A stretch of 64,000 bases of DNA. It comes from a virus. A program made the position numbers and the translations under genes. Positions within the stretch are counted from its first letter, which is position 1, and each line of letters begins with the position of its first letter. The stretch is taken from the UHGV virus genome UHGV-0213393. One strand, written 5' to 3'. Positions 5,497 to 49,200 of this stretch are shown piece after piece. Below the pieces are notes generated by a model. That model ran no database searches and had not been told where the DNA came from. It saw nothing but the letters and a program-made list of their open reading frames with translations.

Positions 5497-5514
5497 ATTA
5501 ATTTTCTAATACAT
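5497..5514. promoter_or_regulatory. operator-like motif variant (ATTTTCTAATA)
   Basis: taattttctaatacat between ORFs. Confidence 0.35.
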
Positions 5515-5588: not shown

Positions 5589-5981
5589 ATGGAGCAAATC
5601 AGTAGCGCCGAAATAGCGGATATCATGATCAGGGCTGACTGCTATCTGACGGTCACCGAAATCACCAGCCGTGCAAAAGCACAATATCCTCACCTTCATG
5701 TGTCGCGCGTAAACGTAAATAACATCATACGTTTTTTTGTTCGTTCCAGTCGTGCCATTTGCGAAATAGACGACCGCGTATACCCCCGGAAATATTGGTT
5801 ACATGGCCTGAATGGATACCAGTTCAAGGTGCGCGGGCGCACTCCTGAATTCGGTCGGCTGTTGGTGAAAAACACCAACCGAAAGATAGAAGCTCAATTA
5901 CGAAAGGAGCAGCGTCAGTTGGTGGCGATGACTAACCAGCTATGGAACGCCGCTGTGAAAAAACGTGAGGCTTCCCTATGA
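5589..5981 (+). CDS. hypothetical protein
   Basis: 130-aa ORF; overlaps start of downstream terminase small-subunit candidate. Confidence 0.5.
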   Translation: MEQISSAEIADIMIRADCYLTVTEITSRAKAQYPHLHVSRVNVNNIIRFFVRSSRAICEIDDRVYPRKYWLHGLNGYQFKVRGRTPEFGRLLVKNTNRKIEAQLRKEQRQLVAMTNQLWNAAVKKREASL

Positions 5982-7342
5982 CGTTAATTAACTGGGAGGC
6001 GCATCGAGCTAAGTTCCTGGAGTTAAGAGAAGAAACCGGGATCACCATAAAAGAATATTGCGAGCAGCATGACCTCAGCTTTAACACCGCCAGAAAGCAT
6101 CTCAATATGAAAAAAAATGAGGTTAAGGCGAAAGCTAAGGCTGCCGGGAAAAGTACAAAACAGCGCGCAAAAAGCAGCGCCACCGGCTCAAAAAAAGAGC
6201 AAAAAAAGGCTGATAAAAGCACAGAATTTACAAAAACTGACAAATCGTTAGCTGGTGGACAGTTCCGCGCCATGCCGCAAAAACAAAATGCGGATCACAA
6301 AGAAAAACCAAGTAATAACAACAGGATACACAAGGATGTGAAGGGATCATTTTGTGATGAAATGGGAGAAATGATCCCTAAAAGCAGCGAAAAAGCCCAA
6401 CGAAACAAGGGATCATTGCAAATGATCCCTGACTCATCAGCTCAAAGCGCCACTTTGCCTGCCACCAACGTCGCCCGTGAGATGATGAAGAACGGCGCGA
6501 CTGAACATTTACGACTTGCGATACAGATGGCGCAGGAACGAGCAATTCAGTATCAGGCCATCGTTGACCAGGAAGCGGAGCGACTACAGGAAGAGATTGA
6601 CGCCCTCGGCGATACACAGCCAGAGGGGATGCACCCAGGGCAGCGTCTTCTCGGCCTAATAAGCGATGCGGCCTACTACATGAATGACTTTATCAGTAGG
6701 TTGGCAGCCATCTACCAGACCGAGCAGAAGCTACGCCAGGGGGATGAAAAACTTGCGCAGGGCGCGCGTCAGCAGGCATTCAGGGAGGCTGAGGCCAGAG
6801 AAAAACTGGCGATTGCCCGCCTGCAGGCCGAGCAGCGTGGCAAGGAGATTGAGTATCGCATTGGCGCTGACGCACGCGCCGCCAGGGTTATCGCCGCCGC
6901 TATACGTATGCGTGAGCGCGAGGAGCTGGACGATATAGGCGTAGCTGAATATATCGAGCGGCAGGGCGTCAGTGTCCCAGCTATCCTGGCGGCACGAGCG
7001 GCAAAAGCGATCTCACTTCTGGAGCCTCCGGTTTCTGACGTTAACGATGTTGATGATGAGCAACTGGATAAAGAGGCGAAGCAGTTTGCCGAGCAACAAG
7101 CTGGACTCCCACAATGGCTTGCACAACGCCGGGCTGAAGTAGCGAAAATCGTTGATAGGCTTGGGATGGGGGATTACGACCGGAACGGAGAACGTAAAGC
7201 CGGTGAATTTGAGGCCAATGATGAAGACCTGAATATAGACCCTTCCGCCACGGCTGATATCTACGGTGATTATGACGCGGGGGATACCGGTTTTGATGCT
7301 GTAGATGACGAGATTGTGATAGACCAGCCGGAGGATGACTAA
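5978..7342 (+). CDS. putative terminase small subunit (PacA-like)
   Basis: Immediately upstream of and coupled to the ATPase terminase gene; N-terminal HTH-like region, K-rich linker, acidic C-terminus; contains internal GATC cluster. Confidence 0.45.
   Translation: MTLINWEAHRAKFLELREETGITIKEYCEQHDLSFNTARKHLNMKKNEVKAKAKAAGKSTKQRAKSSATGSKKEQKKADKSTEFTKTDKSLAGGQFRAMPQKQNADHKEKPSNNNRIHKDVKGSFCDEMGEMIPKSSEKAQRNKGSLQMIPDSSAQSATLPATNVAREMMKNGATEHLRLAIQMAQERAIQYQAIVDQEAERLQEEIDALGDTQPEGMHPGQRLLGLISDAAYYMNDFISRLAAIYQTEQKLRQGDEKLAQGARQQAFREAEAREKLAIARLQAEQRGKEIEYRIGADARAARVIAAAIRMREREELDDIGVAEYIERQGVSVPAILAARAAKAISLLEPPVSDVNDVDDEQLDKEAKQFAEQQAGLPQWLAQRRAEVAKIVDRLGMGDYDRNGERKAGEFEANDEDLNIDPSATADIYGDYDAGDTGFDAVDDEIVIDQPEDD
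6333..6430. promoter_or_regulatory. candidate pac site (clustered GATC inverted pairs)
   Basis: Four GATC as gggatcatt / aatgatccc pairs at 6345, 6373, 6411 and 6424 inside the small-terminase gene. Confidence 0.45.
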
Positions 7343-8850
7343 TGGCTGGTGGTCGTAAGATTAAGTGCGTCACCAGTGATCCACGTTGGCGCGATATGGT
7401 TATCAGGTATCGATACAACTTTACCCAGGCGGTTGTCGATATTTTTGGGATGTTCCCCTCCCATCAGCAGCAGCAGATCATTCAGTCAGTGCAGGAGACG
7501 GGGAGCAGGACGACCGTTACGTCCGGACACGGAACGGGTAAGTCATCCCTTACCGCGATGTTGCTACTAATTTTTATGATCCTGTTCCCCGACGCCCGCG
7601 TCATTATTGTTGCGAACAAAATAGGCCAGGTAAAAACAGGCGTATTCAAATACGTGAAACAGTTTTGGGCGAATGCTGTTAAGCGCCACGGCTGGTTACA
7701 GACCTATTTTGTCCTGTCTGACACCATGTTTTATGAGCGTTCCCGTAAAGGGATATGGGAAGTGCTCTGTAAAGGTTATCGACTCGGTAACGAAGAGGCA
7801 CTGGCGGGGGAGCACGCGGAGCATTTACTGCTAATCCTTGATGAAGCATCGGGCATATCCGATAAGGCGATTAACGTCATGACGGGGGCGTTAACGCAGA
7901 AAGATAACCGTATGCTCATGCTTTCCCAGCCTACGCGTCCAAGCGGTTACTTTTATGAATCCCACCATTCAAGGGCAAAGGCAGAAGGCAATCCGGAAGG
8001 AGTCTGGACGGCAATAGTCCTTAACTCTGAAGAATCTCCATTCGTTGAACCGAGCTTTATTCGTGAGAAATTGCTGGAGTACGGCGGCAGGGATTCGCTG
8101 GAGTACATGGTTAAGGTGCTGGGCCAGTTCCCGCGTGCAATTAACGGGTATTTGCTTGGTCGTGATGAGTGCGACCGCGCCGCACGGCGTAAAGTGTTGC
8201 TGGAGAAAGATTGGGGCTGGGTAGCGACCGCTGACGTCGGTAATGGTCGCGACAAATCGGTGCTCAATATATGCAAAGTATCCGGTTATCGTGAGAAACG
8301 ACGCGTTGTGAACTTTAAGATACTGGAGATGCCAGGCACTATGGACCCGTTGGCTTTTGCCGACTTTATCTATAACGAATGCACTCCTGATAAATACCCG
8401 AACATCACCATTGCTGTGGATGCTGATGGCTTTGGTTCAGATACGTGTGCGCAGCTTGTCCGCCGTGGTGCTAATCCCGTTCGCATCCGTTGGGGTAAGC
8501 CTATGTTTGCGCTAAGAGACAGAGAACGCTTTGTCAATCAGCGTGCTTACGCCAATATTATGGCAGGGGATGCCATTAAATCAGGGCGTATGCGTATCGA
8601 TAGTGACCCCAAAACCGCAGATCAGGCATCAAAAATCCCGTATATGCTTAACGAAGAAGGGAAGGTAGCGATGATGCGCAAGGAGCACATGCGGCAGAAG
8701 TTAAACATCAAGTCGCCGGACAGATGGGATACCTACTGCTTCACTATGCTGGTGGATTACGTGCCTGCTAATGAAGACATTGGCGCAGAACTCGCAACAT
8801 TCCGCGATCAGGTGTTGGCAGAAGTGGATATTCCTGATATTGACATTTAA
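7342..8850 (+). CDS. terminase large subunit (PacB-like)
   Basis: P-loop GHGTGKSS and Walker B LLILDEASG in N-terminal half; about 500 aa; coupled to upstream small-subunit candidate. Confidence 0.7.
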   Translation: MAGGRKIKCVTSDPRWRDMVIRYRYNFTQAVVDIFGMFPSHQQQQIIQSVQETGSRTTVTSGHGTGKSSLTAMLLLIFMILFPDARVIIVANKIGQVKTGVFKYVKQFWANAVKRHGWLQTYFVLSDTMFYERSRKGIWEVLCKGYRLGNEEALAGEHAEHLLLILDEASGISDKAINVMTGALTQKDNRMLMLSQPTRPSGYFYESHHSRAKAEGNPEGVWTAIVLNSEESPFVEPSFIREKLLEYGGRDSLEYMVKVLGQFPRAINGYLLGRDECDRAARRKVLLEKDWGWVATADVGNGRDKSVLNICKVSGYREKRRVVNFKILEMPGTMDPLAFADFIYNECTPDKYPNITIAVDADGFGSDTCAQLVRRGANPVRIRWGKPMFALRDRERFVNQRAYANIMAGDAIKSGRMRIDSDPKTADQASKIPYMLNEEGKVAMMRKEHMRQKLNIKSPDRWDTYCFTMLVDYVPANEDIGAELATFRDQVLAEVDIPDIDI

Positions 8851-10306: not shown

Positions 10307-11335
10307 ATGGGTGAACTAGTTATCTCCGGCGGTTCTGGTGGTTTTCTGCGCGATATTGGCACCGAATACCAAGAAGCTGCAAAAAACTTTATGCAGTTCA
10401 TGAACGACCAGGGAGCTTATGCCCCAAATACGCTTCGAGATCTCCGTCTGGTGTTTCATTCCTGGGCGCGGTGGTGTAACTCGCGCCAGCGCCCCTGGTT
10501 CCCGATTACGCCGGAAATGGCCCGCGAGTATCTTCTCCAGTTGCATGAGGCCGATCTGGCTTCGACCACCATTGATAAGCACTATGCCATGCTTAACATG
10601 CTGCTTTCGCAATGTGGCCTCCCGCCGCTCTCGGACGATAAAAGTGTGTCTCTGGCCATGCGGCGCATCCGGCGCGAAGCGGCAACGGAAAAAGGCGAGC
10701 GAACAGGCCAGGCTATACCGTTGCGGTGGGATGATCTGAAATTGCTCGACGTATTGCTGTCCCGTTCCGAGCGGCTGGTGGACCTGCGCAATCGGGCGTT
10801 TCTCTTCGTGGCATACAATACCCTGATGCGTATGTCAGAAATCTCGCGCATCCGCGTCGGAGATCTGGACCAAACAGGTGACACTGTAACGCTGCATATT
10901 TCACACACGAAGACCATCACGACCGCCGCCGGACTTGATAAGGTGCTTTCTCGTTGCACTACCGCCGTACTGAACGACTGGCTGGAGGTGTCCGGACTTC
11001 GTCAACATCCGGACGCGGTGCTATTCCCGCCAATACACCGCAGTAATAAGGCCAGAATCACGACAACTCCCCTTACTGCACCTGCAATGGAGAAAATATT
11101 CAGCGATGCCTGGGGGTTGCTGAACAAACGAGATGCCACGCCGAACAAGGGAAGATACCGGACGTGGACAGGCCATAGTGCGCGTGTTGGTGCGGCAATT
11201 GATATGGCTGAGAAACAGGTGTCAATGGTCGAGATCATGCAGGAAGGCACATGGAAAAAGCCCGAAACACTTATGCGATATTTGCGCCGTAGCGGGGCAT
11301 CCGTTGGTGCAAATAGTCGCCTGATGGATTCCTGA
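10307..11335 (+). CDS. cre: Cre-like tyrosine site-specific recombinase
   Basis: Blocks SVSLAMRRIRRE, RNRAFLFVAYNTLMRMSEISRIRVGDL and WTGHSARVGAAIDMAEK...MQEGTW match Cre as recalled; catalytic Tyr in LMRYLRR. Confidence 0.9.
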   Translation: MGELVISGGSGGFLRDIGTEYQEAAKNFMQFMNDQGAYAPNTLRDLRLVFHSWARWCNSRQRPWFPITPEMAREYLLQLHEADLASTTIDKHYAMLNMLLSQCGLPPLSDDKSVSLAMRRIRREAATEKGERTGQAIPLRWDDLKLLDVLLSRSERLVDLRNRAFLFVAYNTLMRMSEISRIRVGDLDQTGDTVTLHISHTKTITTAAGLDKVLSRCTTAVLNDWLEVSGLRQHPDAVLFPPIHRSNKARITTTPLTAPAMEKIFSDAWGLLNKRDATPNKGRYRTWTGHSARVGAAIDMAEKQVSMVEIMQEGTWKKPETLMRYLRRSGASVGANSRLMDS

Positions 11336-22095: not shown

Positions 22096-22131
22096 AATAT
22101 GTTAGAAAATTAAAATTAATATTCTAACACG
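22096..22131. promoter_or_regulatory. operator-like inverted pair
   Basis: atgttagaaaat-N9-atattctaacac upstream of the minus-strand 21062..22057 gene. Confidence 0.55.
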
Positions 22132-26973: not shown

Positions 26974-27010
26974 TTGTGTTAGAAAATCAATTTTGATTTT
27001 CTAACATATT
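26974..27010. promoter_or_regulatory. operator-like inverted pair in a divergent promoter
   Basis: gtgttagaaaatc-N6-gattttctaacat between the minus-strand operon and the ref-like gene. Confidence 0.6.
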
Positions 27011-41030: not shown

Positions 41031-41042
41031 CAAAATGCAAAA

Positions 41043-41079
41043 CTGTGTTAGATAATTGAGTTTTATTTTCTAACATAGT
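41043..41079. promoter_or_regulatory. operator-like inverted pair
   Basis: tgtgttagataatt-N6-tattttctaacatag upstream of rdgC. Confidence 0.55.
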
Positions 41080-41089
41080 TTTGCGAAAC

Positions 41090-41995
41090 ATGAGATTAGT
41101 CGCCTTTAAAAACATATACGTCTATCGCCTTGCCCGCGAAATAAAACTGGACTCAACCACCGTTAGTGATGCCTTAAGCCAATTCACATTCACTCCATGC
41201 GCATCACAAGAAATGGCAAAAGTCGGATGGGTGCCGGTTCTGGCTGACAACCTGATCCATGAATACCACGGTTTTCTACTTCTCCAGCAACAGCGAGAAA
41301 TTAAGCTCCTGCCCTCTCATGTCATTAAGGAGGAAGTGCAGAAAAAAGTGGAAAAGCTCGAAAATGAGCAATCTCGTAAGCTGAAGAAGTCGGAAAAAAA
41401 CACCCTGAAGGATGAAGTTCTCCACTCTTTGTTGCCTCGCGCATTCACTCGCAAATCATTGTCGCGAATCCTTATTGATCGCGACAACTATCTGGTCTTC
41501 GTAGAAGCTTCCAGCGCCAGAAAAGCAGAAGAAATGCTGGCGCTCTTACGTAAATCACTTGGCAGCCTGCCAGTGATTCCATTCACGCCGATAGAACCGC
41601 TCGAAATGACTATGACCGAATGGTTCAAGTCAACATTTCCTCAAGGCTTTAAAGCAGGCGAAGAAGCCATATTGAAATCTCTGTTCGATGACGGCGGCGC
41701 AGTTCGTTGCAAGAAAGTAGACCTACAGTCAGAGGAAATAATGACTCATATTGAAGCCGGAAAAGTTGCAACAACAGTTGCAATCAACTGGCAGGACCGC
41801 GCGACCTTCAGGTTAAACGATGACATGAGCATCAAAGCACTGACGTTTTGCGATGATCTCTATGACCAGAACGATGACATCGACCGTGAAGATGTTGCCC
41901 AGCGATTTGATGCTGACTTCATTCTGTTCACAAGCGAATTATCCGCGATGTTTAGCTCGCTGGTGGAGGCCATTGGCGGTGAAGCAGAGCATTAA
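41090..41995 (+). CDS. rdgC: RdgC recombination-associated protein homologue
   Basis: Collinear with E. coli RdgC as recalled: FKNIYVYRL, EKNTLKDEVLHSLLPRAF, LALLRKSLGSLPV, DIDREDVAQRFDADFIL. Confidence 0.85.
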   Translation: MRLVAFKNIYVYRLAREIKLDSTTVSDALSQFTFTPCASQEMAKVGWVPVLADNLIHEYHGFLLLQQQREIKLLPSHVIKEEVQKKVEKLENEQSRKLKKSEKNTLKDEVLHSLLPRAFTRKSLSRILIDRDNYLVFVEASSARKAEEMLALLRKSLGSLPVIPFTPIEPLEMTMTEWFKSTFPQGFKAGEEAILKSLFDDGGAVRCKKVDLQSEEIMTHIEAGKVATTVAINWQDRATFRLNDDMSIKALTFCDDLYDQNDDIDREDVAQRFDADFILFTSELSAMFSSLVEAIGGEAEH

Positions 41996-42659
41996 TAACC
42001 GACCGCTGGCGGTGAGTCTTTGTGATTATACAGGGAATATGGTTTCCCCCTGGCTGGAACACGGCATTGATGCAGTCATTGTCGATCCGCAACACCAGGA
42101 GTCCGGCAGCCAATTGATGGAGTCAGGTGCTGTACTCACACGTATCAGCGCAATTATTGACAGTGATGAGGTCTACAATTTCCTTCGGAAAAATTTGCAC
42201 AGAGTTGTATTTTTAGCCGGTTTCCCTCCATGTACTGACCTGGCTGTATCTGGCGCACGCTGGTTCGCAGATAAAGCGAAAAAAGATCCGGTTTTCCAGT
42301 TCAAAGCAATGCAGGTTGTCTGGCAGTGTTACGACATTGCAAAGATGATTGGTTGCCCGTACATGATTGAAAACCCGGTCAGCCAAATATCGACATTCTG
42401 GCGTAAACCTGATCACATATTCCATCCTTATCACTTCACTGCATATTGCAAGGAAGACAATTACACCAAAAAAACATGCCTGTGGAGCGGACAAGGATTC
42501 ATCATGCCAACTCCGCGAATCGACGAGTCGTTAGGTGATCCAGACAACCGAATACACAAGGCACCGCCAGGACCTGAAAGAGCGAATTTTCGTAGCGCGA
42601 CACCTTACGGTTTTGCAAGAGCTGTATTTGAAGCAAATAAGGAGGGAATCCGTGGCTGA
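41853..42659 (+). CDS. C5-cytosine methyltransferase-like protein (start uncertain)
   Basis: GFPPCTDLAVSG (motif IV-like PC) and MIENPV (ENV motif); overlaps the rdgC 3' end. Confidence 0.45.
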   Translation: MISMTRTMTSTVKMLPSDLMLTSFCSQANYPRCLARWWRPLAVKQSINNRPLAVSLCDYTGNMVSPWLEHGIDAVIVDPQHQESGSQLMESGAVLTRISAIIDSDEVYNFLRKNLHRVVFLAGFPPCTDLAVSGARWFADKAKKDPVFQFKAMQVVWQCYDIAKMIGCPYMIENPVSQISTFWRKPDHIFHPYHFTAYCKEDNYTKKTCLWSGQGFIMPTPRIDESLGDPDNRIHKAPPGPERANFRSATPYGFARAVFEANKEGIRG

Positions 42660-43569
42660 TATTGGTGCTAAATTTATTTCTTATAGCGACAATCATCGTC
42701 CTGCGGCGGAAGCCACTATCAGCCATATGCGACGTATTCGCTCGGAGGACGAATTTGATCGCCCCGTCTTTAAGTGGGTCGGCGGCAAATTTTCTGCACT
42801 GCCCATTATCTTCGAACACCTGCCCCACGGAAAACGGTTGATAGAACCTTTCGTTGGAGGTGGCGCTGTTTTCACTAATGCCGGATTTAAAAGCAACCTG
42901 CTGAACGATATCAATAATGACCTGATTAACTTCTATCAGACATTGCAGCGTGAAGGGCATTCTCTTATCACACTGGCATATCGTTTTTTTCAGGATTACA
43001 ACTCTGCTGATGCATTTTTGAATGTTCGCAATGCATTCAACAATGGTGCTTATGATTCCCTTCACCATGCAGCGGCGTTCCTGTATCTCAATCGTCATTG
43101 TTTTAATGGCGTCACTCGCTATAACCGTAAAGGAGAGTTCAACGTCGGATATGGAAAGCAGAAATCCCCCCACTTCCCTCTCGCGGAAATGGAGGCGTTC
43201 CTGGCTGACGATATTTCAAAGTATTCGGAATTTGTGTCCGGCGATTTTGCTGGTGTAATTGAGGCTGCAGGGAATGATGATGTGATTTTCTGCGATCCCC
43301 CCTATGAACCATTGCCCGACACTACCGGATTTACAAATTACTCAGGGCATAGCTTTAGGTTTGAAGATCAACAACGGCTGGTGTCACTGCTGGTGGATGC
43401 CCACAGACGCGGAGCGAAAATTGTGATAACAAACAGTGGTGCGCCTAACATTCGCGAACTTTACGTTGGCAATGGCTTCAAGGTGTATCCTATGCCATCC
43501 CGTCGCTCTGTATCCTGTAAAGCATCAACCCGAATGATAGCTAACGACATTATAGCCACGCTCAATTAA
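42652..43569 (+). CDS. dam: DNA adenine methyltransferase (Dam-like)
   Basis: FKWVGGK, EPFVGGGAV and DPPY motifs; GTG start with RBS AGGAGGG overlapping upstream stop. Confidence 0.8.
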   Translation: MADIGAKFISYSDNHRPAAEATISHMRRIRSEDEFDRPVFKWVGGKFSALPIIFEHLPHGKRLIEPFVGGGAVFTNAGFKSNLLNDINNDLINFYQTLQREGHSLITLAYRFFQDYNSADAFLNVRNAFNNGAYDSLHHAAAFLYLNRHCFNGVTRYNRKGEFNVGYGKQKSPHFPLAEMEAFLADDISKYSEFVSGDFAGVIEAAGNDDVIFCDPPYEPLPDTTGFTNYSGHSFRFEDQQRLVSLLVDAHRRGAKIVITNSGAPNIRELYVGNGFKVYPMPSRRSVSCKASTRMIANDIIATLN

Positions 43570-43570
43570 G

Positions 43571-43590
43571 AAAAGCCCCATATGGGGCTT
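43571..43590. terminator. bidirectional terminator
   Basis: aaagcccca-ta-tggggcttt between dam and parG-like gene. Confidence 0.65.
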
Positions 43591-43599
43591 TATAACATC

Positions 43600-43700
43600 A
43601 AATAAACGCCATTACGGTACACTAATAACACCATTCTGGTACTAAAAAGGCATCAAGGTAGTATCAAAATACCACATGGAACCAAAACGGTGTTATTCCG
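43600..43700. repeat. centromere-like repeats downstream of parG-like gene
   Basis: aacaccattctggtactaaaaag and ggaaccaaaacggtgtt recur, with near-identical copies at 44640-44850. Confidence 0.45.
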
Positions 43701-49118: not shown

Positions 49119-49200
49119 TTGTTCTAATGTTTTATGTTAGAAAATTAAGATTAAACCATACTAACACAAGATTGTTAACGAAAATTATTTTTCTAATGCT
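49118..49200. promoter_or_regulatory. operator-like motif cluster in divergent promoter
   Basis: ttgttctaatg, tatgttagaaaattaag, ctaaca, attatttttctaatgc. Confidence 0.55.

Follow-up and report, generated by a model that had tools for sequence, protein, structure and literature searches.

Organization of the locus

The virus genome UHGV-0213393 was analysed as one strand of 64,000 nucleotides (nt), referred to below as the window, and this study concerns two DNA methyltransferase genes that lie next to an rdgC homologue in it. The window belongs to a D6-like phage-plasmid of Escherichia coli. Between 41.0 and 43.6 kb, three consecutive genes are found on the plus strand (Table 1): rdgC, a gene for a 226-residue protein resembling DNA cytosine-C5 methyltransferases (the C5 gene), and dam. 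The two methyltransferases are separate, intact orphan enzymes, and the genes around them showed no restriction partner.

The genes overlap at both junctions. A first-pass annotation, made from the sequence alone, had described an overlap between the open reading frame (ORF) upstream of dam and the 3' end of rdgC; the overlap exists, but it spans 17 nt and not about 140 nt. The same annotation let the GTG start of dam overlap the stop of the upstream ORF, and this is correct: the GTG lies 8 nt before the end of the TGA (42657-42659), the overlap being GTGGCTGA. The C5 gene and dam are read in two frames, offset by these 8 nt and with the TGA between them, and do not form a single polypeptide. 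The dam start was also called by the Prokaryotic Genome Annotation Pipeline (PGAP) in plasmid NZ_LR890273. For rdgC, ATG 41090 is most likely the start, as in phage D6 and in the PGAP annotation, and not TTG 41081.

Table 1. Features of the rdgC-C5 gene-dam locus and its flanks (window coordinates)
Feature	Position	Strand	Remarks
Inverted pair of the 13-nt motif TGTGTTAGA(A/T)AAT	41041..41080	.	59-nt gap between the baseplate gene and rdgC; candidate repressor operator overlapping the proposed operon promoter
rdgC / hrdC homologue	41090..41995	+	301 residues, ATG 41090 to TAA 41995; first operon gene; PF04381, E 1.2e-100
GGAGG Shine-Dalgarno sequence of the C5 gene	41965..41969	+	inside rdgC 3' end; 9 nt before GTG 41979; same in D6
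C5 gene: predicted compact DNMT3-like DNA cytosine-C5 methyltransferase, phage 'Dcm-like' family (phrog_757)	41979..42659	+	226 residues; GTG start, TGA stop
Motifs of the C5 protein	LCDYTG 42018-42035; VDPQH 42081-42095; GFPPCTDL 42219-42242; IENPVS 42366-42383; YTKKTC 42462-42479; RSATPYGF 42591-42614	+	Cys85 codon 42231-42233
AAGGAGG Shine-Dalgarno sequence of dam	42639..42645	+	inside 3' end of the C5 gene
dam: Dam-family N6-adenine DNA methyltransferase	42652..43569	+	305 residues; GTG start; PF02086 and TIGR00571
Motifs of the Dam protein	FKWVGGK 42769-42789; EPFVGGGAV 42844-42870; DPPY 43294-43305	+	FVGGG residues 67-71; DPPY residues 215-218
G+C-rich hairpin AAAGCCCCATATGGGGCTTT	43572..43591	.	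directly after dam stop; from terminator scan
Sites of the 13-nt motif	401-413, 1646-1658, 5501-5513, 22098-22131, 26975-27008, 41044-41077, 49133-49145, others		most sites checked against the ORF list are intergenic

Start codon of the C5 gene

The upstream ORF was initially thought to lack a clean start and was placed from 41853. Neither statement holds. GTG 41979 has a GGAGG sequence in front of it with a 9-nt spacer. Phage D6, where the authors begin orf64 at the same GTG, has an identical 27-nt stretch that includes these two elements, ctggtggaggccattggcgGTGaagcag. ATG 41853 opens a frame that runs inside rdgC only. In D6, an in-frame stop separates the equivalent position from this GTG, so the extension is not conserved, and the longer frame of the window is an accidental open frame inside rdgC.

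Two shorter starts were considered. In NZ_LR890273, PGAP begins the gene at an internal ATG (window 42039) and reports a 206-residue 'hypothetical protein' (locus L003, 8736-9356). This start would delete the conserved LCDxTG motif and the predicted strand beta-1, and it is therefore very probably wrong; correction of the RefSeq/PGAP start, which loses that strand and the putative loop for binding S-adenosylmethionine (SAM), is a by-product of the analysis. GTG 42012 has no Shine-Dalgarno sequence and is hence less likely.

A 305-residue protein (P0001) from a 1,053-nt ENA contig is 99% identical; in it, the C-terminal region of RdgC continues in frame into the C5 methyltransferase. The join evidently arose via a 1-nt indel near the end of rdgC and is probably a sequencing error or a pseudogene.

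The 226-residue protein belongs to a compact phage methyltransferase family

The 226-residue protein gave a full-length match to the profile phrog_757 ('DNA methyltransferase'), with residues 3-223 aligned to profile positions 9-221 of 247 (E 3.1e-78), and its single-domain length is that of the family. In a collection of 5.8 billion proteins, 7,685 homologues were found. With E up to 1e-3, the family comprises 1,659 clusters of 50% identity, almost all with lengths of 205-260 residues, and its members mostly have a single domain. Matches by tblastn occur in 1,571 phage genomes, among them T1-like Drexlerviridae, Webervirus, rV5-like, PVP-SE1-like, T4-like JSE and T7-like phages.

The C5-like character given to this ORF at first reading is upheld by fold and motifs together. 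Of the two motifs named then, the Pro-Cys pair is present as motif IV (GFPPCTDL), with Cys85 directly after strand 76-81. The other departs from a canonical ENV: the motif VI region reads IENPVS, with Pro in place of Val, and Glu131 and Pro133 of it are invariant. The motif I region, LCDYTG(N), follows strand 10-14 and is non-canonical with respect to FxGxG; Asp16 and Gly19 are invariant among close relatives. An alignment of 31 sequences (56-84% identity to the window protein) contains 73 invariant columns, including Cys85, Glu131-Asn132-Pro133 and Arg205-Ser-Ala-Thr-Pro, and Cys85, Glu131 and Pro133 are still invariant across 47 diverse family members.

The ratio of nonsynonymous to synonymous substitution rates (dN/dS) against D6 is 0.069 for the C5 gene, at a saturated dS of 1.56, and 0.093 for rdgC. 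The C5 gene is under purifying selection stricter than that on rdgC and retains its catalytic motifs, so the suggestion that it is a decaying domain must be abandoned.

One family member (P0241, 548 residues) carries a Hint/LAGLIDADG intein exactly between Pro-Pro and the catalytic Cys of FPPC. Inteins tend to sit in active-site motifs. A P1-Dmt-type protein (P0366) likewise contains intein domains.

The AlphaFold model of the 226-residue protein has a predicted local distance difference test (pLDDT) score of 86 and a predicted template modelling (pTM) score of 0.85. It folds as a class I Rossmann SAM-methyltransferase, and the known structures nearest to it are those of C5 DNA methyltransferases. 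The best PDB matches in Foldseek were DNMT3A/3B (E 1.6e-5). Generic Rossmann enzymes follow closely; therefore, the C5 assignment was based on fold and motifs in combination. The best structural matches comprise the catalytic domain of DNMT3A/3B, M.HhaI and 3g7u (prophage CP-933R), which share the motif order I, II, IV (PC), VI (EN), X with the 226-residue protein, and its target-recognition region is small, as in DNMT3. It differs from them in being ~60-100 residues shorter than the smallest of these domains, and the identity is 8-16%, with no significant sequence or profile match. PF00145 did not match above its gathering score, and sequence and profile searches of the PDB yielded nothing meaningful, just ornithine decarboxylase at E 0.4. 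The family is too diverged to match PF00145.

The Dam protein and comparison with P1 Dmt

The downstream gene was recognised from the outset as Dam-type by its FKWVGGK and DPPY motifs, and the profile searches agree (PF02086, E 2e-53, 182 bits against a cut-off of 22; TIGR00571, 231.6 bits against 114.85). The protein stays below the equivalog cut-off for E. coli Dam (NF008152, 220.9 bits against 441) and matches phrog_116 at profile positions 493-777 (E 1e-137).

P1 Dmt (YP_006537) is a 754-residue polypeptide, and its domains bear out the statement, in the first-pass annotation, that P1 combines both activities in one protein: PF00145 is N-terminal (residues 8-135 and beyond) and PF02086 occupies residues 493-725. 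Over 285 residues, the window Dam shares 69% identity with Dmt residues 471-753 (E 3e-149), and RdgC is 51% identical to P1 HrdC. The Dam module is thus common to both elements and stands in the same genomic slot after hrdC/rdgC; one polypeptide in P1 corresponds to two genes in the window. In both, the presumed output is dual, 5-methylcytosine (5mC) and N6-methyladenine, and the operon is likely to be repressor-controlled.

Methylation of GATC is ascribed to Dmt in the annotation of the P1 record and also in a review, according to which P1 cannot do without dmt in Dam- hosts, since pac has to be methylated at GATC. The 69% identity suggests that the window Dam also methylates GATC. The window contains 225 GATC and 171 CCWGG sites against rough expectations of about 250 and 125, which is neither an informative depletion nor an informative enrichment.

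The relationship does not extend to the C5 parts. The C5 half of Dmt is a canonical PF00145 domain of ~470 residues with GTPCQ, ENVPG, QRRRR and GNSMAIPV motifs, and it has no detectable relation to the 226-residue protein. BLASTP revealed no similarity between the two (best E 4), and hhalign comparisons of phrog_757-family profiles with the N-terminal half of Dmt, profile to sequence and profile to profile, gave E values of 0.26 and 0.4 at probabilities below 1%. The sole hhalign segment, which is non-significant, pairs FPPCTDLAVSG with GTPCQAFSIAG of Dmt; such a correspondence at motif IV is to be expected between members of the superfamily that are very distant and is not a sign of recent common origin. 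Since similarity to the Dmt C5 half is lacking, the locus is not a split Dmt, as had been supposed, but contains a member of a different stand-alone family of ~220 residues. The alternative wording of that proposal, a differently assembled Dmt, is acceptable in one sense, namely that the slot between rdgC/hrdC and the shared Dam module is the same but holds a C5 module without homology to that of Dmt.

A 473-residue protein (P0271, 123 member sequences) from P1-like E. coli elements consists of the PF00145 half only and is 99% identical to P1 Dmt residues 1-470. Unlike the window gene, it is a genuine split or truncation of Dmt.

Phage K42 Dcm as a probable characterised relative

A preprint on retron Ec86 (2023) described escape mutants of phage K42, a relative of the BASEL phage KarlJaspers, with mutations in a 711-bp "Dcm-like C5 cytosine methyltransferase" gene (bioRxiv 10.1101/2023.08.16.553469). 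From a model based on DNMT3A, C82 was designated catalytic and E128, K175 and K176 substrate-binding. [quoted passage not shown] The enzyme triggers retron Ec86 and is active when expressed alone (bioRxiv 10.1101/2023.08.16.553469). The result has been cited by later papers.

The phrog_757-family member of Warwickvirus MartyMcPhage is encoded by a 711-bp ORF and has the Cys of FPPC at 82, the Glu of IENP at 128 and the two Lys of FKKTC at 175/176. Identity is at least 91% throughout its ~60 top-matching records; one of these is BASEL phage FritzSarasin, annotated with the same string. From the gene length and the four residue numbers, and not from the sequence of K42 Dcm itself, we infer that the latter is a member of this family.

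The window protein shares 36.6% identity with the MartyMcPhage protein over 95% of its length. The two are of the same length class (226 and 236 residues), and FPPC, IENP and (Y/F)xKKTC occur at equivalent positions; the K42/Warwickvirus Dcm is likewise predicted to resemble the DNMT3A catalytic domain. That K42 Dcm produces 5mC makes the same chemistry a reasonable expectation for the 226-residue protein. The genomic settings differ, since the K42/Warwickvirus gene belongs to a virulent siphovirus, is solitary and adjoins neither dam nor rdgC. The presumed target-recognition part, between motif VIII and motif X, also differs; therefore, the CCWGG specificity discussed for K42 should not be assumed for the window protein.

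Phage D6 and related elements

Among the known systems closest to the locus is phage D6 (MF356679), whose orf65-orf64-orf63 correspond to rdgC, the C5 gene and dam and likewise follow the baseplate gene in this order. Its depositors annotated them as 'RdgC family', 'putative DNA-cytosine methylase' and 'site-specific DNA-adenine methylase; similar to C-term half of P1 dmt only'. The nucleotide identity is 74%, and the proteins are 77% (RdgC), 82-84% (C5) and 74% (Dam) identical. D6 has the same GTG and GGAGG at the C5 gene, and its overlap into dam is likewise 8 nt; unlike the window gene, its dam starts with ATG and encodes a different N-terminal leader. E. coli plasmids are nearer than D6: the 19 kb around the locus are 97.8% identical to NZ_LR890273, and 127 PLSDB plasmids match.

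Two P1/D6-like contigs that are more distant retain the order rdgC, small methylase, dam; in these, the methylase gene overlaps dam by 19 and 4 nt. In other settings, no Dam adjoins the small methylase; examples are the T4-like phage JSE, a T7-like phage, a Vibrio phage and a lambdoid nin region. Dhillonvirus SO-1 does have an N6-adenine methyltransferase gene, but ~850 nt downstream of it and not adjacent.

A 563-residue protein (P0121; locus L008, 218-1909) carries a compact C5 domain, 64% identical to the window protein, fused to a Dam domain. Its architecture is that of P1 Dmt, built from the other C5 module. No rdgC was found upstream, as it would be in P1, on the single 2-kb contig that encodes it, and the fusion is possibly a frameshift artefact.

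Expression and control

Each methylase gene has its Shine-Dalgarno sequence inside the preceding gene and starts with GTG, and both junctions overlap. These features are consistent with coupled, modest translation, so that the translational coupling proposed earlier for the upstream ORF is plausible.

The gap upstream of rdgC contains the 13-nt motif as an inverted pair, at 41044-56 on the plus strand and 41065-77 on the minus strand. The motif, TGTGTTAGAAAAT, has 16 matches in the window with up to 2 mismatches, against 2.2 expected, and the 17-mer has 4 matches against 0.22 expected. Inverted pairs with a spacing of 21 nt occur at 22098/22119, 26975/26996 and 41044/41065; the one upstream of rdgC is conserved in D6 and NZ_LR890273 and resembles, by eye, the core of the P1 C1 operator. 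The motif is probably the operator of a C1-type repressor, or else a late-promoter element. According to the P1 record, the operator Odmt (Op68) and the C1-controlled promoter Pdmt govern uhr-hrdC-dmt, and by analogy the operon of the window might be repressor-controlled and expressed on induction. A sigma-70 scan of the gap found no consensus promoter, so the proposed promoter and operator are drawn from motif enrichment.

The hairpin after dam was scored as a minus-strand terminator for the converging parA-like operon, and it may also end the plus-strand operon.

Interpretation of the locus and alternatives

The interpretation that we favour, with a probability of about 0.85, is a three-gene operon encoding two intact and independent methylases, in which a non-homologous C5 cassette replaces the C5 part of Dmt, and not a split or decayed fusion. 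In the proposed reaction, Cys85 of FPPC would attack C6 of the target cytosine, Glu131 of the ENP motif would protonate N3 and SAM would donate the methyl group to give 5mC. Dam, which shares ancestry with the Dam half of P1 Dmt, would methylate GATC. The operon would be switched on when the operator pair just upstream of rdgC is derepressed, in analogy with the C1-controlled Pdmt of P1. Both enzymes would most likely methylate replicating phage DNA before packaging and protect it from restriction in the next host, and Dam could additionally methylate pac and replication/origin sites, as in P1.

Several points weigh against this interpretation. The 226-residue protein has no Pfam, NCBIfam or PDB sequence match, and a Pfam scan with E up to 10 found PF00145 in 2 of the 47 diverse family members, both below threshold (best E 0.0039). 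K42 Dcm was assigned to the family by gene length and four residue numbers, not by sequence, and at ~37% identity to the K42/Warwickvirus clade its target specificity is not transferable. The promoter and operator roles derive from motif enrichment, and the methylation activity of the 226-residue protein and of D6 orf64 is a prediction.

A detached or decaying C5 half of a P1-type Dmt fusion would account for the position of the ORF, which follows hrdC and precedes the Dam part as in P1, and for the clearly shared Dam part (69% identity); true C5-only derivatives of Dmt, such as P0271, do exist elsewhere. However, the ORF has neither BLASTP nor profile similarity to the Dmt C5 half, encodes 226 residues against about 470, and is a member of an independent family that many unrelated phages possess without having Dam. 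Its dN/dS of 0.069, its invariant catalytic motifs and its own conserved Shine-Dalgarno sequence and start also disagree with such an origin, which we regard as highly improbable. A chance open frame, not expressed, would agree with the PGAP label 'hypothetical protein', with its shorter start, and with the lack of a Pfam or NCBIfam match. Its probability is close to nil given thousands of homologues, the phrog_757 match (E 3e-78), the confidently predicted fold and a low dN/dS at saturated dS (0.069 at 1.56).

Other alternatives accept an active enzyme and differ in what it does. A structural match to CmoX raised the idea that the 226-residue enzyme adds another group, for example carboxymethyl from host carboxy-S-adenosylmethionine (Cx-SAM), or acts on a non-DNA substrate; Arg205 may correspond to the Cx-SAM-selecting Arg of CmoX. 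DNMT3 enzymes have an Arg in the equivalent 'GRSWSVP' motif and use SAM, which counts against this idea. Moreover, LC-MS detected 5mC for the family member of K42, the C5 ORF has neither a cmoA nor a ligase gene beside it, and CmoX-type enzymes carry SPPC, have ~330 residues and are described as C5 methyltransferase homologues, so that a different chemistry seems very unlikely. The small enzyme might instead form an obligate complex with Dam, which would provide DNA binding or targeting, the overlap ensuring stoichiometric co-production. Conservation of the tight overlap in four lineages, the natural small-domain/Dam fusion P0121 and the fusion of a C5 domain to the same Dam in P1 agree with this. 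However, most of the phages examined carry the family member as a solitary gene, K42 Dcm expressed on its own is active, and P0121, known from a single 2-kb contig, could be a frameshift artefact; an obligate complex is therefore quite unlikely. A broader proposal combines such elements: the enzyme would have a short or relaxed specificity, or use Cx-SAM to make 5-carboxymethylcytosine, or be targeted via the co-translated Dam, and would not be a plain CCWGG Dcm mimic. It was suggested by the minimal target-recognition region and the near-invariant Arg205 (RSATP), perhaps at the position of the CmoX Arg, and we consider it unlikely. If Cx-SAM use or pairing with Dam were true, the rdgC-dcm-dam cassette would be a combined anti-restriction device with a chemistry undescribed for phage-plasmids.

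On the favoured interpretation of two independent methylases, P1-like and D6-like phage-plasmids carry unrelated C5 modules in one slot upstream of a shared Dam, a clean cassette replacement and not gene decay. The novelty is low: the depositors of D6 had annotated this arrangement before, one member of the enzyme family has been characterised, and nothing here would surprise a specialist. On a wider view, neither Pfam nor NCBIfam has a model for the ~7,700 homologues; a cytosine methylase family that is widespread in phages is thus systematically under-annotated. Both methylase classes are known triggers of retron defence and both alter restriction sensitivity (bioRxiv 10.1101/2023.08.16.553469 and later papers). 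The pair is therefore relevant to predicting the host range of D6/P1-like plasmid prophages.

Neighbouring genes and minor observations

The neighbours of the locus include P1-type tail and baseplate genes, PacA/PacB-like terminase genes, ParM/StbA and ParA-like partition genes and HigBA. The region 10307-11335 encodes a tyrosine recombinase (PHROG integrase match, possibly Cre-like) and 5978-8850 the PacA/PacB-like terminase genes, which is consistent with a plasmid prophage of the P1/D6 type.

In D6 (locus L001, 6586-8247) and many Salmonella and E. coli D6-like plasmids, glnS, for glutaminyl-tRNA synthetase, lies directly 3' of dam. The window (43570-43700) and its closest relatives do not have it there, and dam leads straight to the parA-like operon.

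On the minus strand, an ORF of 223 residues (42502-43173) lies opposite the end of the C5 gene and the first half of dam. This frame, antisense to coding sequence, has most likely arisen by chance.

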